Of a DNA stretch of 33,499 bases, positions 323 to 24,622 are shown piece by piece. The stretch's first letter is position 1. Each line of letters starts with the position of its first letter. The stretch lies in IMG/VR virus record IMGVR_UViG_3300017734_000036. One strand, given 5' to 3'. Under the pieces are notes generated by a model. The model was not told where the DNA came from and searched no databases. It saw nothing but the letters and a program-made list of their open reading frames with translations. A program made the translations under genes and the position numbers. This DNA comes from a virus.

Positions 323-348
323 CTATGCGCCGCCCCCTCTCTTTTCCT
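316..348 (+). terminator. Candidate plus-strand intrinsic terminator: GGGGCG / CGCCCC stem, 9-nt loop, then CTCTCTTTTCCT.
   Basis: 316-321 pairs with 331-336, followed by a pyrimidine/T-rich tract. The hairpin overlaps the stop codon of the minus-strand ORF ending at 323. Confidence 0.35.
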
Positions 349-520
349 CATTGCCTAGCTCCTGATTAAGAAACATCAAGCAAGCGTCATGGATGAAGCA
401 TATCCTGTTGAACTCTTGCTGGTCGATGCTGCCTAACTCTTTTTCTGCTAGTAGGTGGCCCAGCTTTAATTCTAGGCTATCCATGAGATAGTAAAACATC
501 TCCGGCCTATGCTGATTCAT
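323..520 (-). CDS. Hypothetical protein, 65 aa. Last gene of the leftward early operon.
   Basis: ORF track. Its start overlaps the upstream HTH gene by 14 nt. Looks helical, no recognised motif. Confidence 0.5.
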   Translation of the reverse strand: MNQHRPEMFYYLMDSLELKLGHLLAEKELGSIDQQEFNRICFIHDACLMFLNQELGNEEKRGGGA

Positions 521-2678: not shown

Positions 2679-3050
2679 AATGTTTGATCCTTTGTTGGTT
2701 GCTAGTGATAAGGAACCCTACCAATGGCATAATAGACTGTCAACAGGAAAAATGATATTTATGAAATATTCCTAGCACAGCACGGCAAGGCACATGCGGC
2801 GACGCCTATATATAAGGACAGCATGACAGGGCAGGGCATTGGCTTGTGATTGCGTGGAATGAGTGCGGTTTGCGCAACGCATGCACGCACAACAAAGACA
2901 AGGACGCGGAGCAATGCCAGCGACGCATGGCCGGCATAGCAGTGTGGCGACAGGGTAGGGGGGAGTGCCGCGACCCCATGCACCCCCGTCGGCGCGGCCA
3001 CTCTATACATGTGTTAATTACACCTATCCCACACACAGTCAGGAGGAAAC
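2679..3050. other. 372-nt non-coding region between the divergent early and late operons. The central part is GC-rich and dense in palindromes.
   Basis: Only overlapping junk-like ORFs in three frames (Cys/Arg/His-rich). Contains TATATATAA (2807-2815), GCATGC, GGCATTGG (2834-2841) and GCAATGCC (2910-2917). Confidence 0.75.
2715..2770 (-). promoter_or_regulatory. Candidate sigma70 promoter of the leftward early operon: -35 TTGACA, 17-nt spacer, -10 TAGGGT, with an AT-rich UP-like tract.
   Basis: Minus strand reads AATATTTCATAAATATCATTTTTCCTG-TTGACA-N17-TAGGGT. The -35 is 2738-2743 and the -10 is 2715-2720. The AT tract 2749-2770 contains the inverted repeat ATATTT-N3-AAATAT. Confidence 0.5.
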
Positions 3051-3440
3051 ATGGCTAGGCTAACGCAGAGCAAGGCAGAGAGCGTTGCGGAGTTAGTGAT
3101 GCAAGGGCATAGCCTTGTCAGTGCATGCAAAGAGGCGCGGATCAGTAGATCGGTACTGTATAAGAAGATGGGGGAGGATGCTGAGTTAAGTAATCTTATT
3201 CGTACTGCGCAGCAGCAGAGTGCGGAGAAGGCATTGGAGGATGTCGAGGTTATGTACCAGCAGCAGCTTACCGGTTCTAAGAAGTATGATCCTAATGTGT
3301 TAAGAGACTATGCTCTTCATGTTAGATGGAAGGTGGGCAAGGTCATGCCGGATCAGTATGGTGATGTTAAGAACCGTGCTGGTGTAGAGGTGTCGGATGG
3401 CACGGTGCGTATCGTTTGGGAGAGCGATAGTGCAAGTTAA
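3051..3440 (+). CDS. terS: Terminase small subunit, 129 aa, with an N-terminal HTH.
   Basis: Strong RBS AGGAGGAAAC-ATG. The N-terminal HTH-like segment SLVSACKEARISRSVLYKKM is typical of small terminases. Sits immediately upstream of and overlapping the large terminase. Confidence 0.65.
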   Translation: MARLTQSKAESVAELVMQGHSLVSACKEARISRSVLYKKMGEDAELSNLIRTAQQQSAEKALEDVEVMYQQQLTGSKKYDPNVLRDYALHVRWKVGKVMPDQYGDVKNRAGVEVSDGTVRIVWESDSAS

Positions 3441-4716
3441 GATCCCTTACAAGCCAAGAGACTTACAGGCTGAGATGCACGTCAGCGTAAAGCGTTGGAA
3501 CGTGCTTGTGATGCACCGCAGGTTTGGCAAGACGGTATGGGCTGTTAATCATCTTATTAAGCATGCCCTTACTTGTGAACTTCCTAGACCGCGTGTGGCG
3601 TTTGTAGCGCCTACTTTTACACAAGCAAAGCGTATTGCGTGGGATTATGTGAAGTATTATGCGTCTGTGATCCCTGGCGTGAAGTTTAATGAAACTGAAC
3701 TGCGTGTAGACTTCCCTAATGGCGGCAGGTTGATGCTGTTGTCTGCTGAAAACCCTGACAGCTTGCGCGGCATCTATCTGGATCTGTGCGTATTCGACGA
3801 GTTTGGGATGCAAAACCCAAGGGTATGGGGGGAGGTTGTGAGACCGGCACTGTCCGACAGAGAGGGTGCGGCTGTATTTCTAGGCACCCCAGCCGGACAT
3901 AATCATTTTTTTGATCTATTGGAACAGGCCAAGGCTGAGACGGCCAATGGCTCTGATCAATGGTATCACAAGACTGTGAAAGCCTCTGAAAGTGGTTTGG
4001 TAAAGGCAGAGGAGCTTGATGCAGCGAAGGCACAGATGACGCCAGAGCAATACGAGCAAGAGTATGAATGTTCGTTCACTGCTGCTATCATTGGTGCCTA
4101 CTATGGAAAACTGCTGGCTGATGCCGATGATACTGGAAGGATCACAAGGGTTCCGTATGATCCTGCTTATCCTGTGCATACAGCCTGGGATCTGGGTATA
4201 AATGACTCAACAGCTATATGGTTTGCTCAAGTCTTTCGTGGCGGCTCTATCAACATCATTGATTACTATGAGAACGGTGGTGTTGGGCTGGATCACTACG
4301 CTGATGTCTTGCGCCAAAAAGATTATCACTACGGTGATCACCTCGCTCCGCACGATATCGAAGTAAGAGAGCTAGGTAGCGGCAAGTCACGGCTTGAGAC
4401 TGCGTTTAGTCTCGGCATCCGCTTTCGTGTTGTCCCTAAAATGAAAATAGCTGACGGTATCAATGCTGCACGCATGATGATGCCAAAATGCTTTTTTGAC
4501 AGAGATAAGTGTAATGATGGCGTAGAAATGCTACGGCAGTACAGGCAGGAATGGGATGAACGCAAAAAAGTTTTTAGAGATCACCCGCGCCATGATTTCA
4601 CGAGTCACGCTGCGGATGCGTTTAGGTATTTGGCTGTTGGGCTGGAGAACAAACAAAATTTCACAAAGCCTCCGCAACAGATGGCAATGAACGACTACAA
4701 TCCGTTTACGCTATGA
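3397..4716 (+). CDS. terL: Terminase large subunit, 439 aa.
   Basis: Walker A HRRFGKT. Walker B LDLCVFDEFG. RNaseH-like nuclease motifs AWDLGINDSTAIWF and HDFTSHAADAFRY. An alternative in-frame GTG start at 3430 with a GGGAGA RBS is possible. Confidence 0.9.
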   Translation: MARCVSFGRAIVQVKIPYKPRDLQAEMHVSVKRWNVLVMHRRFGKTVWAVNHLIKHALTCELPRPRVAFVAPTFTQAKRIAWDYVKYYASVIPGVKFNETELRVDFPNGGRLMLLSAENPDSLRGIYLDLCVFDEFGMQNPRVWGEVVRPALSDREGAAVFLGTPAGHNHFFDLLEQAKAETANGSDQWYHKTVKASESGLVKAEELDAAKAQMTPEQYEQEYECSFTAAIIGAYYGKLLADADDTGRITRVPYDPAYPVHTAWDLGINDSTAIWFAQVFRGGSINIIDYYENGGVGLDHYADVLRQKDYHYGDHLAPHDIEVRELGSGKSRLETAFSLGIRFRVVPKMKIADGINAARMMMPKCFFDRDKCNDGVEMLRQYRQEWDERKKVFRDHPRHDFTSHAADAFRYLAVGLENKQNFTKPPQQMAMNDYNPFTL

Positions 4717-5129
4717 TAGTTGACCTGCACCACTACAGAACAGCTAGGGAAATAATGACGATTAGTCATTATCACCAAGACTATAGTGATCAGGACATCA
4801 AAGAGTTTATTGAACCGCCGCTGGCTCTAGGTAACTATCTCATCATCGAAGATGAAACAGGCTTTCCGTATGTGTTTGCAACATGGGCTTTTCCTGAGAT
4901 GCACCACATAGACGTATATGTGCGCACCGGCAAGTTCCCGTCATCTGGCTTCCGTGGTTGCGGCGACAGCCCTTGGGTCGTGGATTTTATTGCTTTCGGT
5001 GGCTTTCAAAGCGTAAAAGCTGGTTGCAGGTATTTAAAAGACACATTTATCGAAATGGGATATAGTGATTGCTATTGGCTGCGTACTGAAACAGGCAAAA
5101 TCGGCTTTCATAGCTTGAAGGAGAATTGA
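4713..5129 (+). CDS. HlyC/CyaC-type toxin-activating lysine acyltransferase (TAAT) family homologue, 138 aa.
   Basis: PYVFATWAFPE...CGDSPWVVDFIAFGG resembles the HlyC core PVAYCSWANLS...SGDRKWFIDWIAPFG (recalled from memory). His-rich N-terminal segment SHYHQDY. ATGA overlap with the terL stop. Confidence 0.55.
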   Translation: MIVDLHHYRTAREIMTISHYHQDYSDQDIKEFIEPPLALGNYLIIEDETGFPYVFATWAFPEMHHIDVYVRTGKFPSSGFRGCGDSPWVVDFIAFGGFQSVKAGCRYLKDTFIEMGYSDCYWLRTETGKIGFHSLKEN

Positions 5130-5130
5130 T

Positions 5131-5904
5131 ATGGGTTCCGGTGGTGGCGGCGGTGTAGACGCAGAACCTCGCAGAGATCCTTATGCAGATCCACGCAAGG
5201 CTGCTGGCTCACGCACAGATGCAACACGCATGTCAGGCGCTAGAAAGCGTGAAGAAGAGCGATTGCGGCGTGCATCTTTCGTAAGTGGCGATCAGTCCTA
5301 TGTAACCGGCGGCGGTGATATTGTGCGCGATACCTCTGGTGGGGGCGTGCTTACGAGAACTGGTGTGCAGCGTGCAGAGGCTTCTAGACAGGAGGAGCTT
5401 GAGACTTTGATCTCACGCCGCCAAGGTGGTTCTGGTGACCCAGAGGCGGGTAAGCGGCAAATGGCGATTGAGCAACTTGAAAAACGCAAAGAACAAACCT
5501 TGCCTGGGTTCCTTGGTGCCGTCTCTCGTATGAATATTGAACGCCAGCTTGCCGACTTGAAGGCTGGTGGCACACCGCAGTTTGGCCTTAGTCCTACTGG
5601 CACCTTCATAACTCGCGGAGTTACACCGCAGGGACAAGAAGCTCCTGGCGCTGCTGCGAATATTCAGCCCATGTTTGGTGCAATGGGCGTAGATAGCACA
5701 AGAACGCCAGAAATTACGCCAGAAGTAACTGAAGAGTTTGTGCCTGACGATAGGACCCTCATGGGAGCCGCAGATCGAGGTCGAGGCAGAGGTGAAACTC
5801 GACGCACAAGAGTTGCCGGGGCAGGTTCTCTTAAAACTGGCTACGGGGTATTGCTGCGTGGCCCAAGAGTAACAGCACCATCCGGTTCTGGACGTTTATC
5901 GTAG
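5131..5904 (+). CDS. Gly/Arg-rich, low-complexity (probably disordered) protein, 257 aa.
   Basis: Strong RBS GAAGGAGAATTGAT-ATG. Starts 2 nt after the acyltransferase-like gene. Contains GGGGG, RGRGRG and coiled-coil-like stretches. Confidence 0.65.
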   Translation: MGSGGGGGVDAEPRRDPYADPRKAAGSRTDATRMSGARKREEERLRRASFVSGDQSYVTGGGDIVRDTSGGGVLTRTGVQRAEASRQEELETLISRRQGGSGDPEAGKRQMAIEQLEKRKEQTLPGFLGAVSRMNIERQLADLKAGGTPQFGLSPTGTFITRGVTPQGQEAPGAAANIQPMFGAMGVDSTRTPEITPEVTEEFVPDDRTLMGAADRGRGRGETRRTRVAGAGSLKTGYGVLLRGPRVTAPSGSGRLS

Positions 5905-5913
5905 GAGTAGCTG

Positions 5914-6126
5914 ATGTCTATGTTCACCCCAAAGGTAACGATGCCACCGCCCCCGCCGCCGCCAGAGCCGCCAGCACAGGTTGATTACGAGCGTGCAGAG
6001 GCATTGGCCTCTGAGTCCCTACGTCAAGCTACAGGCCAGCGTAAGGGGCGTGGCGCTACTGTTGTGGCCGGTGCCTTGGGCGAACAAGTACAGTCAGGGC
6101 AAACCCCAACCCTGCTAGGGGGCTAA
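5914..6126 (+). CDS. Small protein with an N-terminal poly-proline tract, 70 aa.
   Basis: RBS GGAG. MPPPPPPPEPP, then a Gly-rich C-terminus ending TLLGG. Lies directly upstream of the portal gene. Confidence 0.55.
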   Translation: MSMFTPKVTMPPPPPPPEPPAQVDYERAEALASESLRQATGQRKGRGATVVAGALGEQVQSGQTPTLLGG

Positions 6127-6127
6127 T

Positions 6128-7726
6128 ATGGACGACATCAAAGAACTTGTAGCTCGTTTTGATTATCTTGAAAGTCGTCGAGATAATTGGGATACGCACT
6201 ACCAAGAACTGGCAGATTACATGCTGCCACGCAAAGCCGACATTGTGCGCAAGCGTAGTCGCGGCGAAAAGCGTATGGAGCTTATCTTTGATGGCACCGC
6301 ACTACAGGCTGTAGACCTTCTGTCTGCTTCACTGCATGGGATGCTTACCAGCGGCGCTACGCCGTGGTTTCACCTTGCGATGAAAGATCCTGACATTAGC
6401 CGTGATGACATGGTGCAGCGTTGGCTAGAAGACAGCAGCAAGCGTATGATCAGGGCGTTCAATCAGTCAAACTTTGAGACTGAGGTACACGAACTGTATG
6501 TAGATCTCGTTGTCTTTGGCACCGGCTGTATGTTTGTGGAGATGGATGGCGAGAACTTGCGGTTTAGCACGCGCCATATCTCAGAGTTTTACGTTGCGGA
6601 AGACCAGTTTGGCTTGGTTGATACTGTGTTCCGTAAGTACAAGATCCCTGCACGGCAAGCTGTGCAACGCTTTGGGTTGGAAAACGTAGGCAAGTTTATC
6701 CAGCGCACATTCGAGAAAAAGCCAGATGAAGAGGTAACGCTGCTGCATGCTGTTATGCCGCGCGATGATCGTGACACGACCAAACGCGACAACAAAAATA
6801 TGCCGTTTGCATCAGTCTATATTTGTATGGAAACCAAAATGCCGATTGCGATCAGCGGCTTCCAAGAGTTTCCGTACATTGTCCCGCGCTTTCTCAAGGC
6901 AACTGGGGAGGTAATGGGACGGTCACCTGCGATGGTGGCGTTGCCTGACGTTAAGATGATTAACTTGATGTCAAAAACCATTATCCAAGCTGCGCAGAAA
7001 CAAATAGATCCTCCGCTACTTGTTCCTGATGACGGGTTCCTTCTCCCTATCCGCACGCAGCCAGGTGGCCTCAACTTCTTCAGGAGTGGCACAAGGGATA
7101 CCATTACGCCACTCAATACTGGCGCAAACATTCCTATTGGCCTGCAGATGGAAGAACAGCGCCGTGGTGCCATCCGCTCTGCGTTCTATGTAGATCAGCT
7201 TCTGTCGGCCTCTACGCCTAACATGACGGCTACTGAGGTAGTGCAGCGCCAAGAGGAGCGTATGCGCGTTATAGGGCCGGTTCTAGGGCGTTTGATGAAT
7301 GAGATGCTGCGTCCCATGATTGACCGTGTGTTTGCGCTTATGTTGCGCAACGACATGCTTGCGGTGCCGCCAGAGGCTTTGCAAGGCAGGGACGTAGACA
7401 TTGAATATGTATCGCCACTGGCACGCGCACAGAAGTCCAGCAGTCTGAATGGCACGATGAAGGCTTTGGAGATACTTCTACCCCTTGCACAATCGCTGCC
7501 AGTTGGTGACCACCTCAACCCAGATGGGCTGGTAAATCATATCGTGGACTCTTTGGGTCTGCAGAAAGAGGTACTGTTGCCGCAAGCTCAGGTCGATCAA
7601 CAGCGCCAGCAGCGTGCCGCCGCACAGCAAGCGGAGCTAGAGCGTCAACAAGGCGCAGAAGACGTTTATACGGCTGCACAGGCCGCACAAGCAGTGAGGA
7701 TGGTTAGCGATGGCGGTGGAAGTTAA
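6128..7726 (+). CDS. Portal (head-to-tail connector) protein, 532 aa.
   Basis: The N-terminal motif RRDNWDTHYQELADYMLPRK is typical of podovirus head-tail connector portals. Size and position after the terminase fit. Confidence 0.85.
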   Translation: MDDIKELVARFDYLESRRDNWDTHYQELADYMLPRKADIVRKRSRGEKRMELIFDGTALQAVDLLSASLHGMLTSGATPWFHLAMKDPDISRDDMVQRWLEDSSKRMIRAFNQSNFETEVHELYVDLVVFGTGCMFVEMDGENLRFSTRHISEFYVAEDQFGLVDTVFRKYKIPARQAVQRFGLENVGKFIQRTFEKKPDEEVTLLHAVMPRDDRDTTKRDNKNMPFASVYICMETKMPIAISGFQEFPYIVPRFLKATGEVMGRSPAMVALPDVKMINLMSKTIIQAAQKQIDPPLLVPDDGFLLPIRTQPGGLNFFRSGTRDTITPLNTGANIPIGLQMEEQRRGAIRSAFYVDQLLSASTPNMTATEVVQRQEERMRVIGPVLGRLMNEMLRPMIDRVFALMLRNDMLAVPPEALQGRDVDIEYVSPLARAQKSSSLNGTMKALEILLPLAQSLPVGDHLNPDGLVNHIVDSLGLQKEVLLPQAQVDQQRQQRAAAQQAELERQQGAEDVYTAAQAAQAVRMVSDGGGS

Positions 7727-7913
7727 GAAGCTGCGAGAGATGTACAAGGGCGTGTTTAGTGATCACGCTGGTGAACAGGTACTACGAGATCTTGAGGCAC
7801 GCTGTAACTGGCGTGCTTCAAGCTATGTGGCGGGAGATGCAAATGCCACAGCGTTTGAAGAAGGCAAACGTGCAGTAATCCTTCATATCTACAACATGAT
7901 GAGTGAGGACTAA
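7710..7913 (+). CDS. Small conserved head-module protein, 67 aa. Possibly Bbp19-like.
   Basis: GAGGA RBS. Lies between portal and scaffold. The pattern G..VL.DL...C......GD...T.F.EGKR.V resembles small proteins at this position in BPP-1-like podoviruses (from memory). Confidence 0.5.
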   Translation: MAVEVKKLREMYKGVFSDHAGEQVLRDLEARCNWRASSYVAGDANATAFEEGKRAVILHIYNMMSED

Positions 7914-8759
7914 ATGTCAGAACAAGTGGCTGAACAGGTAGCCCAGCCTGATGCTGCGCCGATGGAAACACCGGCAGAGGTAGCGCAGGGCGGGTCTGGT
8001 AACGACTTCTTGACCATGATACCGGAGGATATCCGCGAACACCCTAGCTTTGGGCCTATCAAGGATGTGGAAAACCTAGCGCGTTCATACGTCAACGCAC
8101 AAAGATTGATTGGCTCGGAGAAAATCCCGCTGCCCATCAACCCAACAGACGAAGATCTCGACAACATTTATGGCCGGCTTGGCCGCCCAGAGGCCCCAGG
8201 TGGCTATGAAATCAAAGCAGATGGCAATGTGATTACTGAAGACATTGCTTCACAATACGCAGATATCGCCCATCAATTGCGTCTTACGCCACAACAAGCA
8301 CAAGGCGTTTTGGAATACTATCGTTCTACTGTGTCTAACTCTGCGGAGCAAATACAGCAAACAGTGGCAGATCAGGCGTCTAACACAGAAGCTGAACTGC
8401 GTCGTGAGTGGGGCAATAACTATGATGCGAAGCTCAATGCTGCATCAGGTGCAGCGCGTGAGTTTGCTGGTGACGGCATCCTTGATATGCAGTTGTCAGA
8501 CGGCACTTTGGTTGGCAACCATCCTGCCTTTATCAAGGCTTTCGCGGCTATGGCAGACTTTAAGTCTACTGTAACCAGCGAAGACAGCATTGACGGTGCG
8601 TCTGCAAACTATGGCATGACACCGAAGCAAGCGCAGTCTGAAATTGACGCAATCATGAACGATAAGAGTCATGCGTATTGGGACAGCAAGAATGTCACGG
8701 CACGGCAAAATGCCATCAATCACATGCAAGAACTGATGAGCATGATCCATGACAGATGA
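7914..8759 (+). CDS. Scaffolding protein candidate, 281 aa.
   Basis: Acidic, Gln/Ala-rich, helical-looking. Canonical position between portal and major capsid. Confidence 0.55.
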   Translation: MSEQVAEQVAQPDAAPMETPAEVAQGGSGNDFLTMIPEDIREHPSFGPIKDVENLARSYVNAQRLIGSEKIPLPINPTDEDLDNIYGRLGRPEAPGGYEIKADGNVITEDIASQYADIAHQLRLTPQQAQGVLEYYRSTVSNSAEQIQQTVADQASNTEAELRREWGNNYDAKLNAASGAAREFAGDGILDMQLSDGTLVGNHPAFIKAFAAMADFKSTVTSEDSIDGASANYGMTPKQAQSEIDAIMNDKSHAYWDSKNVTARQNAINHMQELMSMIHDR

Positions 8760-8985
8760 GGAACAAATTGAGCTACGTTTGGAGTGTCTTAGGATAGCCA
8801 TTGAGTTTGGCACCCAACGTGATATCATGAATCCTGCCCACATGGCACAAATGTACTATGATTGGGTAACACAGGGTAGCGTCGAAAGTCGTCCTGATGA
8901 CAGCCGGAAAGACGGCGGCTTGACGCCAGCCAAAAAGGCCAGGAGTGTCCGCAAGGGTAGCACACCGCAAATCGCCAAAATGTAA
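8749..8985 (+). CDS. Hypothetical protein, 78 aa, with a basic C-terminus.
   Basis: ORF track. Overlaps the scaffold stop by 11 nt and lies upstream of the capsid gene. Confidence 0.45.
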   Translation: MTDEEQIELRLECLRIAIEFGTQRDIMNPAHMAQMYYDWVTQGSVESRPDDSRKDGGLTPAKKARSVRKGSTPQIAKM

Positions 8986-9006
8986 CTGTAGTTAGGAGGT
9001 AGACCA

Positions 9007-11029: not shown

Positions 11030-13441
11030 ATGGCGCGTGTTTCTACTATCATAACTAACTTCCGCGCCGGAGAGTTTTCGCCTCGCCTTGAAGGCCGTAT
11101 AGACCTACAGAAATACAACGAGGCGGCAAAAGAACTAACCAACATGGTGAGTTTCCCGCAGGGTGGCATTACACGCCGCCCTGGTTCGTATTACGCGGGT
11201 GCATCAAAGGACGGTGGCAAAGTCAGGCTGGTAAACTTTGAGTTTAGCGACGAGCAAGCGTATGTGCTTGAGTTTGGTGCCAACTACATCCGGTTCTTCA
11301 AAGACGGCGGCATCTTAACGGAATCCACAAAGACCATCACAGCGGCCACACAAGCCAATCCTGTAGTCGTTACTGCTGCATCACATGGCTTCAACAATGG
11401 TGATCGTGTGTATATCACCAACGTCGCTGGCATGACGCAGCTAAACAACCGTGAGTTTACGGTGGCCGGCAAGACAACAAACACTTTCCAACTGTCGGGC
11501 ATCAATGGCACAGGGTTTGATGCGTACACAAGTAGTGGCGCTGTAGGCAAGATTGTCGAGGTAACCACCACCTATTCGGTCACAGAAATTTTTGAGCTAA
11601 ATCATGTGCAATCTGCGGATGTGTTGTTTCTCGCTCACAAAGACCATGAGCCAGCCAAGCTAACGCGCACAACATCAACCAGCTTCACACTGACTGACAT
11701 CGACTTCATTGATGGCCCATATTTAGACGAAAACAAGACGACAACCACACTATATGCCTCTGCGGCGACTGGCACTGGCATTACAATTACAGCGTCCGCA
11801 GCATTGTTTGAAAGTGCCGATGTCGGACGATTGATCAGGTTCCGTGAAATACTTGAGATTGAACATGATGCGTGGGCGGCAAGCACAAGCTACGCAAACA
11901 ACGCTACGGTACGCAACGCTGGGCATGTTTACAAGCAAGTCACCGGCAGCACACAGACATCAAACAACACACCGCCTGTGCATCTTACAGGCACAGAAAC
12001 CTATGGCACTATTAATTGGGAATACCTGCATGACGCACATGGTCATGTAAAGATAACAGGCTTCACTAGCTCAACTGTCGTTACGGCAGATGTGCATGAG
12101 GATCAATTTGGAAACTCGCGTTTGCCTGATAGTGCTGTGGGTTCAACCAATGCCAACATTCGCTGGTCTTTGGGGGCTTTTGGGGGAGATCAAAAGTTTC
12201 CCAAGGCTGTGGCGTTCTACGAAGAGCGGTTGTACTTTGCCGGCACTACAGGTCAACCACAGACCATCTTTGGCTCAAAGAGTGCTGACTTTGAAAATCA
12301 AACACCAGGCACAAACGATGACGATGCCATCAACATCACCATCGCGTCAGATCGCGTCAACGTAATCAAGCACCTGCTGCCTGGTCGGTTCCTTCAGATT
12401 CTGACTACAAGCTCTGAGTTTACGCTGTCAGGCGGCACAGGTGCAGAGCCTGTCACTCCCACAAACGTCAATGTTTTGCGAGAAACTACCTTTGGCTCAT
12501 CTGATGTCCGTCCGTTGCGTGCCGGCAACAGTACCATCCTTATCCAGAAGGGCGGGGAGCGGGTCAAAGAGATCACGTTTGATTTAGACACAGACGGTTT
12601 GCTGGGCGTTGATCTGACGATTCTGGCAGAGCATGTGGCTAGTGGTGGCCTCACAGACATGGTGTGGCAGCAAGAACCAGAACTTATCCTCTGGTTTGTC
12701 CACAGCGACGGCACCCTTGTAGGGCTGACCTATGACCGCGCCAACGGCGCTGTAGGCTGGCACCAGCATCCATTAGGCGATAGTGGGGTGGTAGAAAGCA
12801 TCACAGCTATCCCCAGCGGTGCAGAAGATCAGGTGTATGTGTCTGTAAAGAGAACGATCAATAGCGCAACGGTGCGCCACATTTGTTTCCTCAAGCCAAT
12901 CAGTTTTGGTACTGATGTCTCAGATGCTTTCTTTTTGGACAGCGGCTTGACCTACAGCGGGTCAGCAACAACCACTATCAGCGGTCTTAATCACCTTGAA
13001 GGCGAGACAGTGCAGATCCTTGCTGATGGCTCTGCGCACGCTGACAAGACCGTATCTGGTGGCAAGGTCATTATAGATCGTAGCTCGACCAAAGTGTCTG
13101 TTGGGTACACTTACAATTCGCTGGTGGAGACTCTGCGGCTAGAGGCCGGCGCAGATGACGGGATATCGCAAGGCAAGATCAAGCGTATCCACGGTGTCAC
13201 GGCACGTTTTCTCAACAGTGTAGGTGCAGAGGTCGGCCCCGATACTAGCAATCTTGACCGCATACCGTTTCGAGATAGCAGCATGGCAATGGATGTAGCG
13301 GTGCCTATGTTTACAGGCGACAAAGAAATTTCGTTCCCATCAGGTTACGACAATGATGCGCGGGTGGTGGTGCAGCAGTCCCAACCATTACCCATGACTA
13401 TTCTTGCAATTATGAGAAGGTCTAACACGTTTGATGCTTAG
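11030..13441 (+). CDS. Tail tubular protein B-like / nozzle, 803 aa.
   Basis: Size is close to T7 gp12 (794 aa). The N-terminal F.AGEFSPRLEGRIDLQKYN motif is typical of the family. Synteny supports the call. Confidence 0.6.
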   Translation: MARVSTIITNFRAGEFSPRLEGRIDLQKYNEAAKELTNMVSFPQGGITRRPGSYYAGASKDGGKVRLVNFEFSDEQAYVLEFGANYIRFFKDGGILTESTKTITAATQANPVVVTAASHGFNNGDRVYITNVAGMTQLNNREFTVAGKTTNTFQLSGINGTGFDAYTSSGAVGKIVEVTTTYSVTEIFELNHVQSADVLFLAHKDHEPAKLTRTTSTSFTLTDIDFIDGPYLDENKTTTTLYASAATGTGITITASAALFESADVGRLIRFREILEIEHDAWAASTSYANNATVRNAGHVYKQVTGSTQTSNNTPPVHLTGTETYGTINWEYLHDAHGHVKITGFTSSTVVTADVHEDQFGNSRLPDSAVGSTNANIRWSLGAFGGDQKFPKAVAFYEERLYFAGTTGQPQTIFGSKSADFENQTPGTNDDDAINITIASDRVNVIKHLLPGRFLQILTTSSEFTLSGGTGAEPVTPTNVNVLRETTFGSSDVRPLRAGNSTILIQKGGERVKEITFDLDTDGLLGVDLTILAEHVASGGLTDMVWQQEPELILWFVHSDGTLVGLTYDRANGAVGWHQHPLGDSGVVESITAIPSGAEDQVYVSVKRTINSATVRHICFLKPISFGTDVSDAFFLDSGLTYSGSATTTISGLNHLEGETVQILADGSAHADKTVSGGKVIIDRSSTKVSVGYTYNSLVETLRLEAGADDGISQGKIKRIHGVTARFLNSVGAEVGPDTSNLDRIPFRDSSMAMDVAVPMFTGDKEISFPSGYDNDARVVVQQSQPLPMTILAIMRRSNTFDA

Positions 13442-13856
13442 ATTTTTGCCGTTTGCACAAGAGCATGTTCAGCACATTAAGTTGATGTTTGATCTTTCTG
13501 AGGATGGCCGCAAAGCATTAGTTGAGCATAAAGATATTAGGGGCTACACACTTTTTGAGGAAGATGTTGTGCTTGGCATAGGCGGTGTACACAACATATG
13601 GAGTGGTGTAGGTGAAGCGTGGTTGCTTCTGGGCAAGGAAGCGTTTGCGCGGCCCAGAACTGTAGCGCGGCACACGGTCAATATATTCGATCACATGCAG
13701 GAAGAGCATCAATATCAGCGTATCCAGGCCAGCATCGCAGTAAAGGATGCAAAGGCTAAAAGGTTCGCAGAATGGCTTGGTTTTCAAAATGAGGGTATAA
13801 TGAGGAAATATGGGCCTGATGGTTCAGATTATTATCGTTATGCAAGGGTGATGTAA
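13434..13856 (+). CDS. GNAT-fold acetyltransferase-like protein, 140 aa, at the position of T7 gp13.
   Basis: C-terminal RIQASIAVKDAKAKRFAEWLGFQNEGIMRKYGPDGSDYYRYARV matches the GNAT acetyl-CoA-binding / C-terminal strand pattern. The tracked ORF starts at TTG 13431, but ATG 13434 is more likely. Confidence 0.5.
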   Translation: MLRFLPFAQEHVQHIKLMFDLSEDGRKALVEHKDIRGYTLFEEDVVLGIGGVHNIWSGVGEAWLLLGKEAFARPRTVARHTVNIFDHMQEEHQYQRIQASIAVKDAKAKRFAEWLGFQNEGIMRKYGPDGSDYYRYARVM

Positions 13857-14311
13857 TGGATGCGATGGCAATCGCAGCAGGTGCCAGTGCAGTAGCTGGT
13901 ATTGTAGGGTTCAAAGGCAATAAACAAGCCGCTCGTATTGCGCGTCAAACTGGCGAATACAATGCACAGCTTGCCGAAAACGAACTGGTAATGCTGCAAC
14001 GCCGCAGAGTGCAGCAAGAAAATGTGATGCGTAAAAACTCTGAGCGTTTAGCTGGTGCGCAAAGAGTAGCTACGGCGGCATCCGGTGTAGAAATGACCGG
14101 CAGTCCTTTATTGGCCTTGGCTGATACATTTTTTCAGACTGAGATGGATGCGCTAAACATACAGTACGCATCGGATTTTGATGCTTTGAACAAGGCATCA
14201 GAAGCTGCGTTAGCGCGTGCTGGTGGCGCTGCACAGGCAGCGGCGTTCCAAACTCAAGCATATAGTTCCTTGCTTACCTCTGGATCTCGCTCTGCACAAC
14301 TTATGGCTTAA
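13856..14311 (+). CDS. Internal virion protein (gp14-like), 151 aa.
   Basis: Hydrophobic N-terminus AIAAGASAVAGIVGF and an Ala/Gln-rich helical body. Position precedes the two giant ejection proteins. Confidence 0.5.
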   Translation: MDAMAIAAGASAVAGIVGFKGNKQAARIARQTGEYNAQLAENELVMLQRRRVQQENVMRKNSERLAGAQRVATAASGVEMTGSPLLALADTFFQTEMDALNIQYASDFDALNKASEAALARAGGAAQAAAFQTQAYSSLLTSGSRSAQLMA

Positions 14312-21469: not shown

Positions 21470-24400
21470 ATGACGGTTAGCAGCACCACTACCAAGAACA
21501 GCTATTCTGGCAATGGTTCTAATGACACCTTTGCTTACGGCTTCAAGATATTCGATGATGACGACATTACGGTTATCATCCGTACAGATGCGACAGGCAC
21601 TGAAACCGTCAAGACTAAGACCACCCACTACACAGTCACAAATGTCGGCAACGCATCTGGTGGCAACGTAGTTTTTACCGGCGGTAACATACCGGCCAGC
21701 GGTGAGACTGTTGTGTTGCGCCGCACATCTGCGCAAACGCAGACTACAGACTATGTAGCTAACGATCCGTTTCCTGCTGCTACCCATGAAGACGCGCTTG
21801 ATAAGCTAACCTTCCTTGCACAAGAACAGCAGGAAGAACTAGACCGCGCCATCAAGATTTCCAGAACAAATACAATGACTTCAACAGAGTTTACTGTTGG
21901 GGCAACTGAACGCGCTAACAAGATCCTTGCCTTTGACAGCAGCGGTGAGATCCAAGTTACACAAGAGATCGGCACCTTCCGTGGCAATTGGGCTGCATCG
22001 ACTGCATATGAGGTGCGTGATCTGGTCAAGGACACCAGTACAAACAACATCTTCATTGTAAACACAGAACACACAAGCTCTGGCGCACAGCCACTTACTA
22101 CTAACGCTAACAGCGCCAAGTACGACCTGATTGTGGATGCTGCGTCAGCGACGACAAGTGCCACAGCGGCGGCGTCATCGGCTACAGCAGCGGCTTCTAG
22201 CGCAACAGCGGCTGCTGCAAGTGAAACTGCTGCGGCAACGTCGGAGACTAACGCGGCGACATCAGCCACAACGGCCACCACCAAAGCCTCTGAAGCGTCT
22301 ACAAGTGCCACATCTGCTGCATCTAGTGCCACAACTGCCACAACAAAGGCGTCAGAAGCATCCACATCGGCTACTAACGCGGCAACCAGCGAAACAAATG
22401 CGGCCACATCGGCTACTGCTGCCGCTGCAAGTGCTACGGCTGCTGCGGCCTCTGAGACGGCTGCTGGCACGAGCGAGACCAATGCTGGCAACTCTGCCAC
22501 CACGGCGACGACAAAGGCGTCTGAGGCGGCTACAAGCGCCACCACGGCTACAACAAAAGCATCTGAGGCATCGACATCCGCGACCAATGCGGCAAGCTCT
22601 GAAACCGCTGCTGCATCGTCAGCTACCGCTGCGGCTGCATCACAGACTTCTGCGGCGGCTAGTGCTGCGTCTGCCGCGTCTGCGTTTGACAACTTCGATG
22701 ACACCTATCTCGGCAGCAAGACCAGCAACCCTACAGTCGATAATGACGGTGATGCCCTGGTTGCCGGCGCGTTGTACTTCAACAGCACAGCCAATGAGAT
22801 GCGAGTTTACGACGGAGCCAACTGGATTGCCGCCACCAGTGCTGGCAATGTCTCGCTCATCCTGTACGAGTACACAGCAACATCAGGGCAGACCACATTT
22901 AGCGGCTCTGACGACAACAGCGCCACGCTGTCCTATACGGCAGACAATCTGCAAGTCGTGATGAACGGTATCGTCCTCGACCCGTCTGACTTCACTGCTA
23001 CAAACGGCACCAGTGTTGTGCTGGCTAGTGGCGCAGCGACTGGCAGCCTTATCAACATCTATGCGTTCAAGAGCTTCACCACGGCTGACATGGTGAGCAA
23101 GACCAACGGCGGCACGTTCTCTGGCAATGTTACTTTTAGCGGGAACCTGACTGCTGATGGCGGCACGATTAAGCTGGACGGCAATTATCCGACAGGTTCA
23201 CAGAACGTCGCAATGGGTGACACTGCGCTTGACGATGGCAGCTTGAGCGGGAACGCGAATACTGCAATCGGCCACGCAGCAATGACTGCTAACACCTCTG
23301 GGTCGGACAATGTTGGAGTCGGCAAAAACGCACTGCTTGCGAATACTACCGGCGATGACAATGTTGCTGTTGGTAAAAACAACATGGATGCTAACTCTAC
23401 CGGCAGCAACAATACTGCTTTAGGCTCGGGTGCGCTGACATCAAATACAACCGCAAGTAACAACACTGCTGCTGGCTATAACGCGCTTGCGGCAACTACC
23501 ACTGGCCATAGCAATGCCGCAATGGGGTACAACGCACTTAGCGCAAACACGGCCAACGCGAGTGCTGCATTTGGCTCATCCGCATTGGCTGCCAATACAA
23601 CTGGTAGTAACTCTGCGTTTGGCTATAACTCCCTGCGCCTTAACACAACAGGCTCTGATAATACGGCTGTTGGGCGAGAGGCTCTTGAAGCCAACACTAC
23701 TGCATCCAACAACACGGCAGTGGGTCATAAGGCACTCACCGCAAACACCACCGGCACAGAAAACACCGCAGTCGGCGCATACGCCGGAGATAGCGTTACG
23801 ACAGCAACAGAAAGCACTTTTCTGGGGTATCAAGCCGGAGAGAAGGCGACAACAGGCACAGCAAATTCATTTCTTGGCCGTATGGCTGGACGTGACACGA
23901 CAACCGGCACCAACAACACATTTGTCGGTCATAATGCGGGTCTTTCTATTAGCACCGGCTCCAAGAATGTGGTTTTAGGCAGTTATGGCGGCAACAGCGG
24001 TGGCCTAGACATACGCACATCTAACAACAACATCGTGCTGTCAGATGGCGATGGTAATCCTAGATTCATTGTTGACGGCAATGGAAAGTCTATGATTGGC
24101 ACCACTAGCGTTGGTTCTGGTGCCTTACTGAGCATTGATGACACATCAAATACTGCAAACGTCTCTAAGTTGGGAATTTTTGGTTTCGGTGCGAGTAGGG
24201 GATATGGAATTGTATGCCAGCCTTCTATAGACACAGCAGCGACACCGGCTAGATTCTTAAATGCAGCCGGGACTGAAGTTGGTAGCATCAGCACAACTGC
24301 AAGTGCCACCAGCTTCAACACCTCGTCAGACTACCGTCTAAAAGAAGCGGTCGTAGATATGACAGGCGCAACTGAACGCCTCAAGCAACTCAACCCTGTC

Positions 24401-24622
24401 CGCTTCAACTTCATTGCAGATGCTGATACTACCATTGACGGTTTCCTCGCACATGAAGTGCAGACCGTTGTGCCGGAAGCTATTAGAGGCACACACAATG
24501 AAGTCGATGACGATGGCAACCCTGTCTATCAGGGCATTGACCAGTCAAAGCTGGTGCCGCTACTCGTCGCAACCATTCAAGAACTTGAGGCACGTATAGC
24601 CACACTTGAAGGAGCAAACTAA
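21470..24622 (+). CDS. Tail fibre, 1050 aa: T7-type N-terminal adaptor domain, Ala/Ser/Thr heptad coiled coil, 17-residue beta-helix repeats, and a C-terminal S74-type intramolecular chaperone domain.
   Basis: The N-terminal Y.GNGS...F.Y.F.I.....I.V motif is typical of podovirus fibres. Heptads span aa 226-405. NTAVG...NTTG repeats span aa 579-840. The C-terminus has SSDYRLKE...LNPV.F......DGFLAHEV..V.PEAI. Confidence 0.85.
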   Translation: MTVSSTTTKNSYSGNGSNDTFAYGFKIFDDDDITVIIRTDATGTETVKTKTTHYTVTNVGNASGGNVVFTGGNIPASGETVVLRRTSAQTQTTDYVANDPFPAATHEDALDKLTFLAQEQQEELDRAIKISRTNTMTSTEFTVGATERANKILAFDSSGEIQVTQEIGTFRGNWAASTAYEVRDLVKDTSTNNIFIVNTEHTSSGAQPLTTNANSAKYDLIVDAASATTSATAAASSATAAASSATAAAASETAAATSETNAATSATTATTKASEASTSATSAASSATTATTKASEASTSATNAATSETNAATSATAAAASATAAAASETAAGTSETNAGNSATTATTKASEAATSATTATTKASEASTSATNAASSETAAASSATAAAASQTSAAASAASAASAFDNFDDTYLGSKTSNPTVDNDGDALVAGALYFNSTANEMRVYDGANWIAATSAGNVSLILYEYTATSGQTTFSGSDDNSATLSYTADNLQVVMNGIVLDPSDFTATNGTSVVLASGAATGSLINIYAFKSFTTADMVSKTNGGTFSGNVTFSGNLTADGGTIKLDGNYPTGSQNVAMGDTALDDGSLSGNANTAIGHAAMTANTSGSDNVGVGKNALLANTTGDDNVAVGKNNMDANSTGSNNTALGSGALTSNTTASNNTAAGYNALAATTTGHSNAAMGYNALSANTANASAAFGSSALAANTTGSNSAFGYNSLRLNTTGSDNTAVGREALEANTTASNNTAVGHKALTANTTGTENTAVGAYAGDSVTTATESTFLGYQAGEKATTGTANSFLGRMAGRDTTTGTNNTFVGHNAGLSISTGSKNVVLGSYGGNSGGLDIRTSNNNIVLSDGDGNPRFIVDGNGKSMIGTTSVGSGALLSIDDTSNTANVSKLGIFGFGASRGYGIVCQPSIDTAATPARFLNAAGTEVGSISTTASATSFNTSSDYRLKEAVVDMTGATERLKQLNPVRFNFIADADTTIDGFLAHEVQTVVPEAIRGTHNEVDDDGNPVYQGIDQSKLVPLLVATIQELEARIATLEGAN
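22145..22684 (+). repeat. About 25 consecutive heptads x-A-x-(S/T)-S-(A/E)-T inside the tail fibre gene. The repeat is at protein level and the codons are scrambled.
   Basis: Read from the translation of aa 226-405. The TATTKASEA(S/A)TSAT units recur four times with different synonymous codons. Confidence 0.85.
23204..23989 (+). repeat. About 15 tandem 17-residue repeats N-T-A-h-G-x-x-A-h-x-x-N-T-T-G-x-x (beta-helix-like) inside the tail fibre gene.
   Basis: Read from the translation of aa 579-840. Confidence 0.75.

Follow-up and report, generated by a model that had tools for sequence, protein, structure and literature searches.

A toxin-activating acyltransferase homologue paired with the gene of a putative tail-channel protein in marine podophages: a candidate system for virion protein lipidation

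IMG/VR virus record IMGVR_UViG_3300017734_000036 is a DNA of 33,499 nucleotides, hereafter called the window, in which an open reading frame (ORF) at 4713-5129 (+) encodes a 138-aa homologue of the toxin-activating acyltransferases (TAATs) of the HlyC/CyaC/ApxC family, with candidate dyad residues H21 and D91. The ORF directly follows terL, the gene for the terminase large subunit (3397..4716, +; PF03237, phrog_2), whose stop codon TGA sits within the ATGA that opens the TAAT ORF, giving a 4-letter overlap. The TAAT ORF stops at 5129, and after a gap of 1 nt the ATG at 5131, the earliest start available past the in-frame stop, opens the gene for a candidate substrate, a Gly/Arg-rich, hypervariable and probably disordered protein of 257 aa (5131..5904, +). 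A Shine-Dalgarno-like AAGGAG at 5118..5123 (+) lies within the last TAAT codons, 7 nt 5' of this ATG, and the C-terminal 'LKE' encoded by the AAGGAG region is conserved in the TAAT family. Given the overlap with terL and the ribosome-binding site within the TAAT gene, the enzyme and its neighbour are probably co-made, presumably late. The ORF coordinates and junctions given by an initial annotation of this DNA are reproduced from the sequence.

The 138-aa product matches the Pfam family HlyC (PF02794) with 33.1 bits (E 6e-8) against a curated cut-off of 25, over profile positions 9-94 of 127 only, and its sole PHROG match is phrog_20210, a family of unknown function. NCBIfam gives zero matches for the three proteins scanned, and the single-sequence phmmer comparison of the 138-aa protein with ApxC is weak (E 0.1). 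When a family alignment of the window protein and ten metagenomic homologues (39-89% identical) is used as a profile, ApxC (4WHN) is the only match in the PDB (E 3.7e-4), and the alignment pairs H21 and D91 with the ApxC His in 'SPLHRKW' and the ApxC Asp in 'IDWIA', respectively. Both residues are unchanged across all 11 aligned family members. In TAATs the catalytic His/Asp dyad is conserved, and His24 of ApxC and His37/Asp107 of CdiC have been named (PMC8510554). A precomputed PF02794 match is present in 11/11 full-length or near-full-length homologues and absent from a 92-aa fragment. The AlphaFold2 model of the 138-aa protein is of moderate confidence (pLDDT 66, pTM 0.53), and for that reason less weight is placed on its Foldseek result against the PDB, where three ApxC chains come top (E 6.7e-4 to 3e-3, TM-score 0.56) and GNATs follow. 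In a BFVD structure search the model resembles phage proteins labelled HlyC and reaches a T7-like 'host range protein' at E 0.025 only. The initial annotation had assigned the protein to the HlyC/CyaC/ApxC family from two motif line-ups with HlyC, one of them 'PYVFATWAFPE', and from the positions of a His and an Asp. Both line-ups are recovered in the HMMER alignments, the PF02794 score and the top rank of ApxC in the PDB profile and fold searches bear the assignment out, and the two residues align with the ApxC dyad. The 138-aa product is a genuine TAAT homologue with the catalytic dyad and no chance resemblance. Elsewhere among the metagenomic proteins, the 988-aa P0061 has a TAAT domain at its far C-terminus (862-961) behind a long unannotated N-terminal part, which could hint at another substrate arrangement.

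The 257-aa protein contains 16% Gly, 12% Arg and 7 Lys, begins with MGSGGGGG (N-terminal peptide GSGGGGGVDAEPRR), carries TPE(I/V) repeats near residues 203-218 and has a conserved basic C-terminal motif, RRTRVAGAGSLKTGYGVLLRG. Pfam and PHROG scans found no significant family and no RTX domain in it. Among IMG/VR genomes, 163 candidate stretches encode a relative of this clade, and 79 loci were recovered by the family profile. The order TerS-TerL-TAAT-variable ORF-70-aa protein-portal is found in 79/79 loci, with the variable ORF always next after the TAAT gene and starting 0-15 nt, usually 1 nt, past the TAAT stop. The product of the variable ORF ranges from 93 to 369 aa among the relatives and is hypervariable in sequence; what is kept is the start MGSGGG... 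or MGG..., the (T/I)PEV repeats and a C-terminal RRRTRG.R.G.AG...E.GYG.L.RG. The ATGA coupling to terL and the 1-nt spacing from the Gly/Arg-rich ORF, on which the initial annotation had remarked, are seen in the window, and the linkage of the two genes extends throughout the 79 related loci, in which the adjacency persists from 100% down to ~40% enzyme identity. The tandem (T/I)PEV repeats occur in the neighbours of the window, L031, L036, L045 and others, the Gly run varies from ~3 to 13 residues, and some variants have PKPKPAPKPK and EPEPQPQPDEP tracts that recall the periplasm-spanning spacer of TonB.

A wider set of 234 phage TAAT-like genes falls into 7 clusters at 45% identity, and 229 of the next genes were scored. 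The next gene starts with Met-Gly in 171/229 cases (75%) and in 6/7 clusters, compared with 3.4% for the other ORFs of 100 aa or more in these loci (n = 986). For instance, in Roseobacter phage CRP-235 gp30 (TAAT) is followed by gp29 (MGGGGGD, 491 aa), and in Pelagibacter phage HTVC115P gp46 (TAAT) is followed by gp45 (MGAISRVFKG; MGAISRVFKGATRAVKKV..., 417 aa); both of these neighbours are large and otherwise unrelated. Of 175 unique phage sequences, 102 retain His together with Asp/Glu, as does every intact sequence of the window's clade, and the state of the dyad co-varies with the N-terminus of the neighbour. The neighbour starts with Met-Gly in 133/144 cases where the dyad is His + Asp/Glu and in 36/37 where it is Tyr + Asp, and in 0/29 where it is Trp + Asp (HTVC103P-like) and 0/17 where the dyad is lost (Tyr + Ser/Ala), the last group having hydrophobic MPEAVV... 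N-termini instead. Across loci L160-L239 Tyr or Trp replaces the catalytic His in many enzymes, and in 59 of 67 such loci another His stands two positions ahead of the Asp ('WHIDT'); judged from the sequences, it is possibly a relocated catalytic residue. The cluster L219-L239, where both dyad residues are lost, has a neighbour whose N-terminus is hydrophobic (MPEAVVTAIITT...) and whose length reaches ~1,000 aa.

The neighbour shares several traits with the gp7.3 family of phage T7, namely a position 5' of a T7-type portal (head-tail connector) gene (6128..7726, +; PF12236 E 2e-147), a Met-Gly start and a basic C-terminal segment. The termini compare as MGKKVKK...GRKKARAGGKKSLS in T7 gp7.3 (sequence MGKKVKKAVKKVTK...GRKKARAGGKKSLSVARSSGGGINI) and MGSGGG...RRTRVAGAGSLK in the neighbour. 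With phmmer, in a set of 188, T7 gp7.3 matches the neighbour of L076 at E 2.4e-4. With hhalign, the relatives of the neighbour score 26.1 against gp7.3, compared with 11.1+-2.3 and a maximum of 18.7 for 60 composition-preserving shuffles, and the global alignment is colinear. Shorter relatives with Lys-rich N-termini (MGGVRRAVKKVTKGV...) give weak, sub-cut-off matches to phrog_1320 (E 0.006) and PF11653 (E 0.017), and such Lys-rich relatives are colinear with T7 gp7.3: the MG start leads into a basic helix, an acidic/Pro segment comes next, and the C-terminus is basic. The 257-aa protein may therefore be regarded as a positional and, weakly, also a sequence counterpart of gp7.3. The next ORF (5914..6126, +) encodes a Pro-rich small protein of 70 aa, a probable core/ejection protein (phrog_831 E 3.5e-4) whose gene immediately precedes that of the portal in every locus. 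Its N-terminus MSMFTPKVTMPPPP resembles those of T7 gp6.7 (MCFSPKIKTPKM) and of gp03 and gp04 of Pelagibacter phage HTVC010P, which themselves match phrog_831 (E 2e-21 and 3e-19, respectively). In T7, six copies of gp7.3 are located in the tail channel at the adaptor/nozzle junction, where their C-terminal loop is held by the nozzle; the basic N-terminal part runs along the DNA end, and gp7.3 is proposed to be ejected first at nozzle opening, while gp6.7 is a core protein that aids outer-membrane channel assembly (PMC11784390). With gp7.3-like and gp6.7-like neighbours, the TAAT gene therefore adjoins genes for small ejected proteins and not head-morphogenesis genes proper. Its earlier placement in a head-morphogenesis module is given up accordingly, as the neighbour fits a gp7.3-like tail-channel/ejection protein better.

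The likeness to T7 extends to the gene in front. T7 gene 7 (NC_001604 19130-19531; L123 1131-1532), which is annotated 'host range' and encodes 133 aa, immediately precedes gene 7.3. A Pfam scan finds no domain in gp7, and hence no HlyC match, and AlphaFold2 predicts a GNAT fold for it (pLDDT 90). At E <= 1e-3 the model has 226 matches in the PDB; among the 50 matches listed, all are GNAT-type enzymes or toxins, including several N-terminal acetyltransferases. Our literature search found no paper linking T7 gp7 to the GNAT fold. T7 gp7 was also considered as a TAAT homologue. The hhalign comparison of the window-clade profile with the gp7 family is not significant (probability 0.7%), a broad TAAT profile reaches only E 0.0039 and a probability of 8.7%, the gp7 model fits generic GNATs and not ApxC, and the His is unconserved. 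On the predicted models, T7 gp7 and the window TAAT would thus share a superfamily and a position, and a closer kinship is not established. The two clusters have in common a ~135-aa gene of GNAT-superfamily fold 5' of a small basic Met-Gly protein, a gp6.7-like protein and a T7-type portal, whereas the neighbour in the window is 2.6x the length of gp7.3 and, unlike in T7, the 7.3-like gene precedes the 6.7-like gene. The window also encodes a second transferase of 141 aa (13431-13856, +; TTG start), a GNAT by PF13420 (27.1 bits vs a cut-off of 24.3) with a homologue in HTVC010P (gp14, 31% identity, E 1e-20), and its gene ends where that of a gp14-like internal virion (core) protein begins (13856-14311, +; weak PF24072). 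Podophages may thus repeatedly place a transferase gene just 5' of one for a small ejected protein.

Where an acyl chain could be attached is constrained by the composition of the neighbours. No lysine position is conserved among them, and the Lys count drops to 0, 1 or 2 in some variants. In a 33-kb contig (L066) the enzyme is intact (VSHYHEDY ... WIIDFIA) and the neighbour, of 189 aa, is free of lysine, and therefore lysine acylation of the neighbour is not the conserved reaction. The G-K lysine sites that the initial annotation had favored in the neighbour consequently lose their appeal. EAGKRQ, its example, is indeed present in the 257-aa protein and is not conserved in relatives; as a conserved acylation site it is rejected, since L002 has EAEK and the segment is absent from other variants. 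The neighbour thus lacks the conserved lysine acceptor seen in substrates of the TAAT family, which is still compatible with another lysine-bearing target. Methionine aminopeptidase removes the initiator Met before Gly, and the only invariant amine of the neighbour is then the alpha-amine of Gly1. With no conserved lysine, this alpha-amine is the most likely acceptor if the neighbour is the substrate clade-wide.

We propose that the phage TAAT attaches a lipid to the ejection protein encoded next to it, possibly at Gly1, and put the probability of this reading at roughly 0.5. The product of ORF 4713-5129 would be an active, shortened TAAT expressed late with terL, and would move a fatty acyl chain from host acyl carrier protein (acyl-ACP) to the 5131-5904 product, most plausibly to Gly1; no ACP family was seen among those window ORFs that were scanned. 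The neighbour, as the gp7.3 counterpart, would be anchored in the tail channel of the virion by its conserved basic C-terminal motif. When the nozzle opens, the flexible lipidated N-terminus would exit first and stick to, or insert in, the host outer membrane. A more specific version holds that the TAAT acylates the Gly1 alpha-amine of the gp7.3-like tail-channel protein, that the first protein expelled is a lipopeptide entering the outer membrane and, by extension, that GNAT-fold T7 gp7 is a gp7.3-modifying enzyme or a degenerate relic of one; this we offer only tentatively, as a version that is somewhat doubtful.

Several observations weigh against the proposal. The 138-aa protein is shorter than the classical TAATs (~170 aa), aligned with them over the core only and modelled with a pLDDT of 66; the homology between the neighbour and gp7.3 is weak and prone to composition effects; the survey counts are phylogenetically non-independent; and the TAAT gene gp34 of HTVC103P lies in an early/replication region, adjoining an unrelated small coiled-coil protein (MSDKDLL...). 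The Met-Gly start is likewise found where the enzyme is missing. T7 gp7.3 itself starts with MGKK, and HTVC010P has no TAAT-like ORF by two hidden Markov models searched against its six-frame genome (best E above 1); HTVC010P and HTVC034P have two or three small ORFs only between TerL and portal, and no acyltransferase. As a control, 80 HTVC010P-type loci were gathered via the portal protein, of which 68 span the end of TerL to the start of the portal gene. None of the 68 has a TAAT-like ORF in this interval, and in the TAAT-less loci the small ORFs between TerL and portal start with Met-Gly in 116/188 cases, including gp7.3-like 'MGSNSSSGGGGGG...' proteins (150-245 aa) and gp6.7-like 'MGSIFKPKMPP...' proteins. 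The N-terminal Gly is thus an old family trait and no signature of an acyltransferase, and after the 68-locus control the Met-Gly start was dropped as a specific sign of N-terminal acylation and kept as the only conserved amine. The gp6.7-like paralogue that is not adjacent to the TAAT gene starts with Met-Ser in 44 and Met-Gly in 8 TAAT-encoding genomes (two TAAT-less isolates excluded), compared with 10 and 38, respectively, in TAAT-less genomes; this contrast, made with no phylogenetic correction, is suggestive of the pattern expected of avoidance of off-target modification. The TAAT-less HTVC010P-type loci (L240-L319) also have an extra conserved ORF of ~55 aa, starting MLDKIKKAFKKKKP / MFEKIKKIFKKKPK, with no counterpart in the window, and their gp6.7-like and gp7.3-like genes are in the opposite order to that of the window.

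We know of no TAAT that acylates an alpha-amine. All characterized TAATs are lysine acyltransferases that modify epsilon-amines (PMC8510554), and it could be that the enzyme acylates internal G-K lysines, as HlyC does on HlyA, in either the 257-aa neighbour or the giant internal proteins. Seven Lys are present in the window's neighbour, EAGK included, the neighbours in other clades can have Lys-rich N-termini (e.g., MGKVVKAITK and MGSVVKKIKK), and the gp15/gp16-like large proteins carry 50-61 Lys each. Yet lysine positions are unconserved, variants with 0-2 Lys stand beside intact enzymes, and EAGK is itself replaced or lost in relatives. The giant internal proteins, which the initial annotation had listed as alternative substrates, are encoded by distant genes that show no link to the enzyme; the conserved linkage is with the adjacent ORF. 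We find this route distinctly unlikely. Alternatively, the enzyme could act on another target, such as a host envelope protein or lipid for takeover or superinfection exclusion, or another virion protein, with the adjacency reflecting no more than co-expression in a late operon. The position of HTVC103P-type homologues among early/replication genes beside the unrelated coiled-coil protein fits this idea, as does the finding that Met-Gly is equally common in TAAT-less relatives and hence has no specific link to the enzyme. However, the pairing is kept from 100% to ~40% enzyme identity and is seen again, beside other neighbours, in further types of phage, loss of the dyad accompanies a different type of neighbour, and known TAAT genes lie directly 5' of the substrate gene (PMC8510554), so that we judge another target unlikely.

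A last possibility is that the protein is a catalytically idle assembly factor of GNAT/TAAT fold, a chaperone or scaffold that loads the tail-channel protein, as T7 gp7 may be. Gene 7 of T7, directly 5' of 7.3, is confidently predicted to encode a GNAT fold in whose family the His-equivalent residue is unconserved, several phage TAAT-like clusters have His changed to Tyr/Trp or have lost both dyad residues, and the 138-aa protein is without the C-terminal part of classical TAATs. Against this stands the strict retention of His and Asp/Glu across large divergence in the clades of the window and of CRP-235, which is hard to account for without catalysis, and an idle protein here seems to us very improbable.

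Compared with HlyC/CyaC/ApxC (PF02794; 4WHN), the window system shares the family match, the His/Asp dyad, the fold match to ApxC and a gene 5' of that of the presumed substrate, and differs in that the enzyme is of 138 aa instead of ~170 and aligns over the core only (9-94/127). Unlike RTX systems, the window has no RTX protein or secretion genes, the context is a phage structural module, and the lysines of the neighbour are unconserved. In hlyC-hlyA and cdiC-cdiA alike, the TAAT gene is immediately 5' of the substrate gene. In class IV contact-dependent inhibition, CdiC puts 3-hydroxydecanoate on Lys1467 and so lipidates a receptor-binding domain, for the most part unstructured, of CdiA, the protein encoded next to it; the lipid enables this domain to anchor in the lipid A leaflet on target cells (PMC8510554). 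CdiC is thus the closest functional analogue and a demonstrated precedent for a non-RTX TAAT with an unstructured, neighbour-encoded substrate that engages the outer membrane; its substrate is a bacterial surface effector, whereas the candidate here is a phage protein whose acceptor would probably not be a lysine. The TAAT genes of HTVC103P, HTVC104P, HTVC115P and CRP-235 (GenBank records MN698242, MN698243, MN698247 and MZ892989) are marine-phage homologues, and the copies of HTVC115P and CRP-235 lie in a structural region, with a Met-Gly protein encoded next. These genes fall into other clusters, beyond the reach of tblastn from the window protein at E 1e-3, and in the HTVC115P/103P type the His is replaced by Tyr or Trp. 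In eukaryotic viruses, small internal virion proteins of the picornavirus VP4 type, whose N-terminal Gly is myristoylated by host N-myristoyltransferase (NMT), itself a GNAT-fold enzyme, are externalized first, and the lipid drives their membrane insertion. An N-terminal Gly with flexible or basic residues behind it is seen here too, but this is an analogy only, as a TAAT is not NMT, the donor would be acyl-ACP and not acyl-CoA, and Met-Gly is also present in relatives without the enzyme.

The window itself is a nearly complete podophage genome of ~33.5 kb, kin of HTVC010P, and related IMG/VR contigs measure 33.3-33.7 kb. Library scans identify Sf6-type TerS and TerL, the T7-type portal, capsid and tail-tube proteins, the gp14-like protein, two giant internal proteins, an S74-chaperone fibre and a lysozyme. 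The closest isolates are HTVC010P-type pelagiphages, with a portal identity of 57-59%. The GC content of the window is ~0.50, which makes SAR11 unlikely as host, and the host of the window phage is probably not SAR11. A scan of genome contigs with the clade profile returned no prophage copy and no clue to the host. GenBank phages contain no match for 3000-9000 by megablast or for the 138-aa protein by tblastn (E 1e-3), and the clade is without a cultured member among the GenBank phages searched. Near the left end, 5' of the packaging genes, a minus-strand ORF of 60 aa (507-689; LGLSQAAMAKRLGVSLQAVYYYETGRRKVP) has the look of an XRE-type helix-turn-helix repressor; another minus-strand ORF is at 323-520 (-). 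The fibre/spike of 1050 aa (21470-24622, +) has a C-terminal Peptidase_S74 chaperone domain (PF13884, E 8e-8), which implies autoproteolytic maturation of a receptor-binding protein.

A TAAT gene in a phage is not in itself new. Phage homologues are already known, annotated as 'toxin-activating lysine-acyltransferase' in Pelagibacter phages HTVC103P, HTVC104P and HTVC115P and Roseobacter phage CRP-235, with an HlyC entry in BFVD, and a marine-phage TAAT is named in a figure legend only, its function undiscussed (bioRxiv 10.1101/2019.12.14.876532). Our literature search found no functional study of a phage TAAT, no paper that places TAATs in virions or reports phage proteins acylated at the N-terminus, and no account of a phage-encoded enzyme that covalently lipidates a virion protein of a tailed phage. 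Three points appear to be new: the enzyme gene is consistently paired with that of a gp7.3-like protein, no lysine of this protein is conserved, and the dyad co-varies with the N-terminus of the neighbour. Marine viromes commonly contain the gene pair, and further clades occur in isolates with cultivable hosts (CRP-235), which makes the hypothesis directly testable; genes 7 and 7.3 of T7 are an even more tractable test system. If the proposal is true, podophage assembly would have an extra maturation step, the first ejected protein would have a mechanism to engage the outer membrane, and the TAAT family would gain a new class of substrate, possibly one acylated on the alpha-amine. Should Gly1 be the acceptor, the neighbour would be a bacteriophage counterpart of myristoylated picornavirus VP4, and TAATs would have a new acceptor chemistry.

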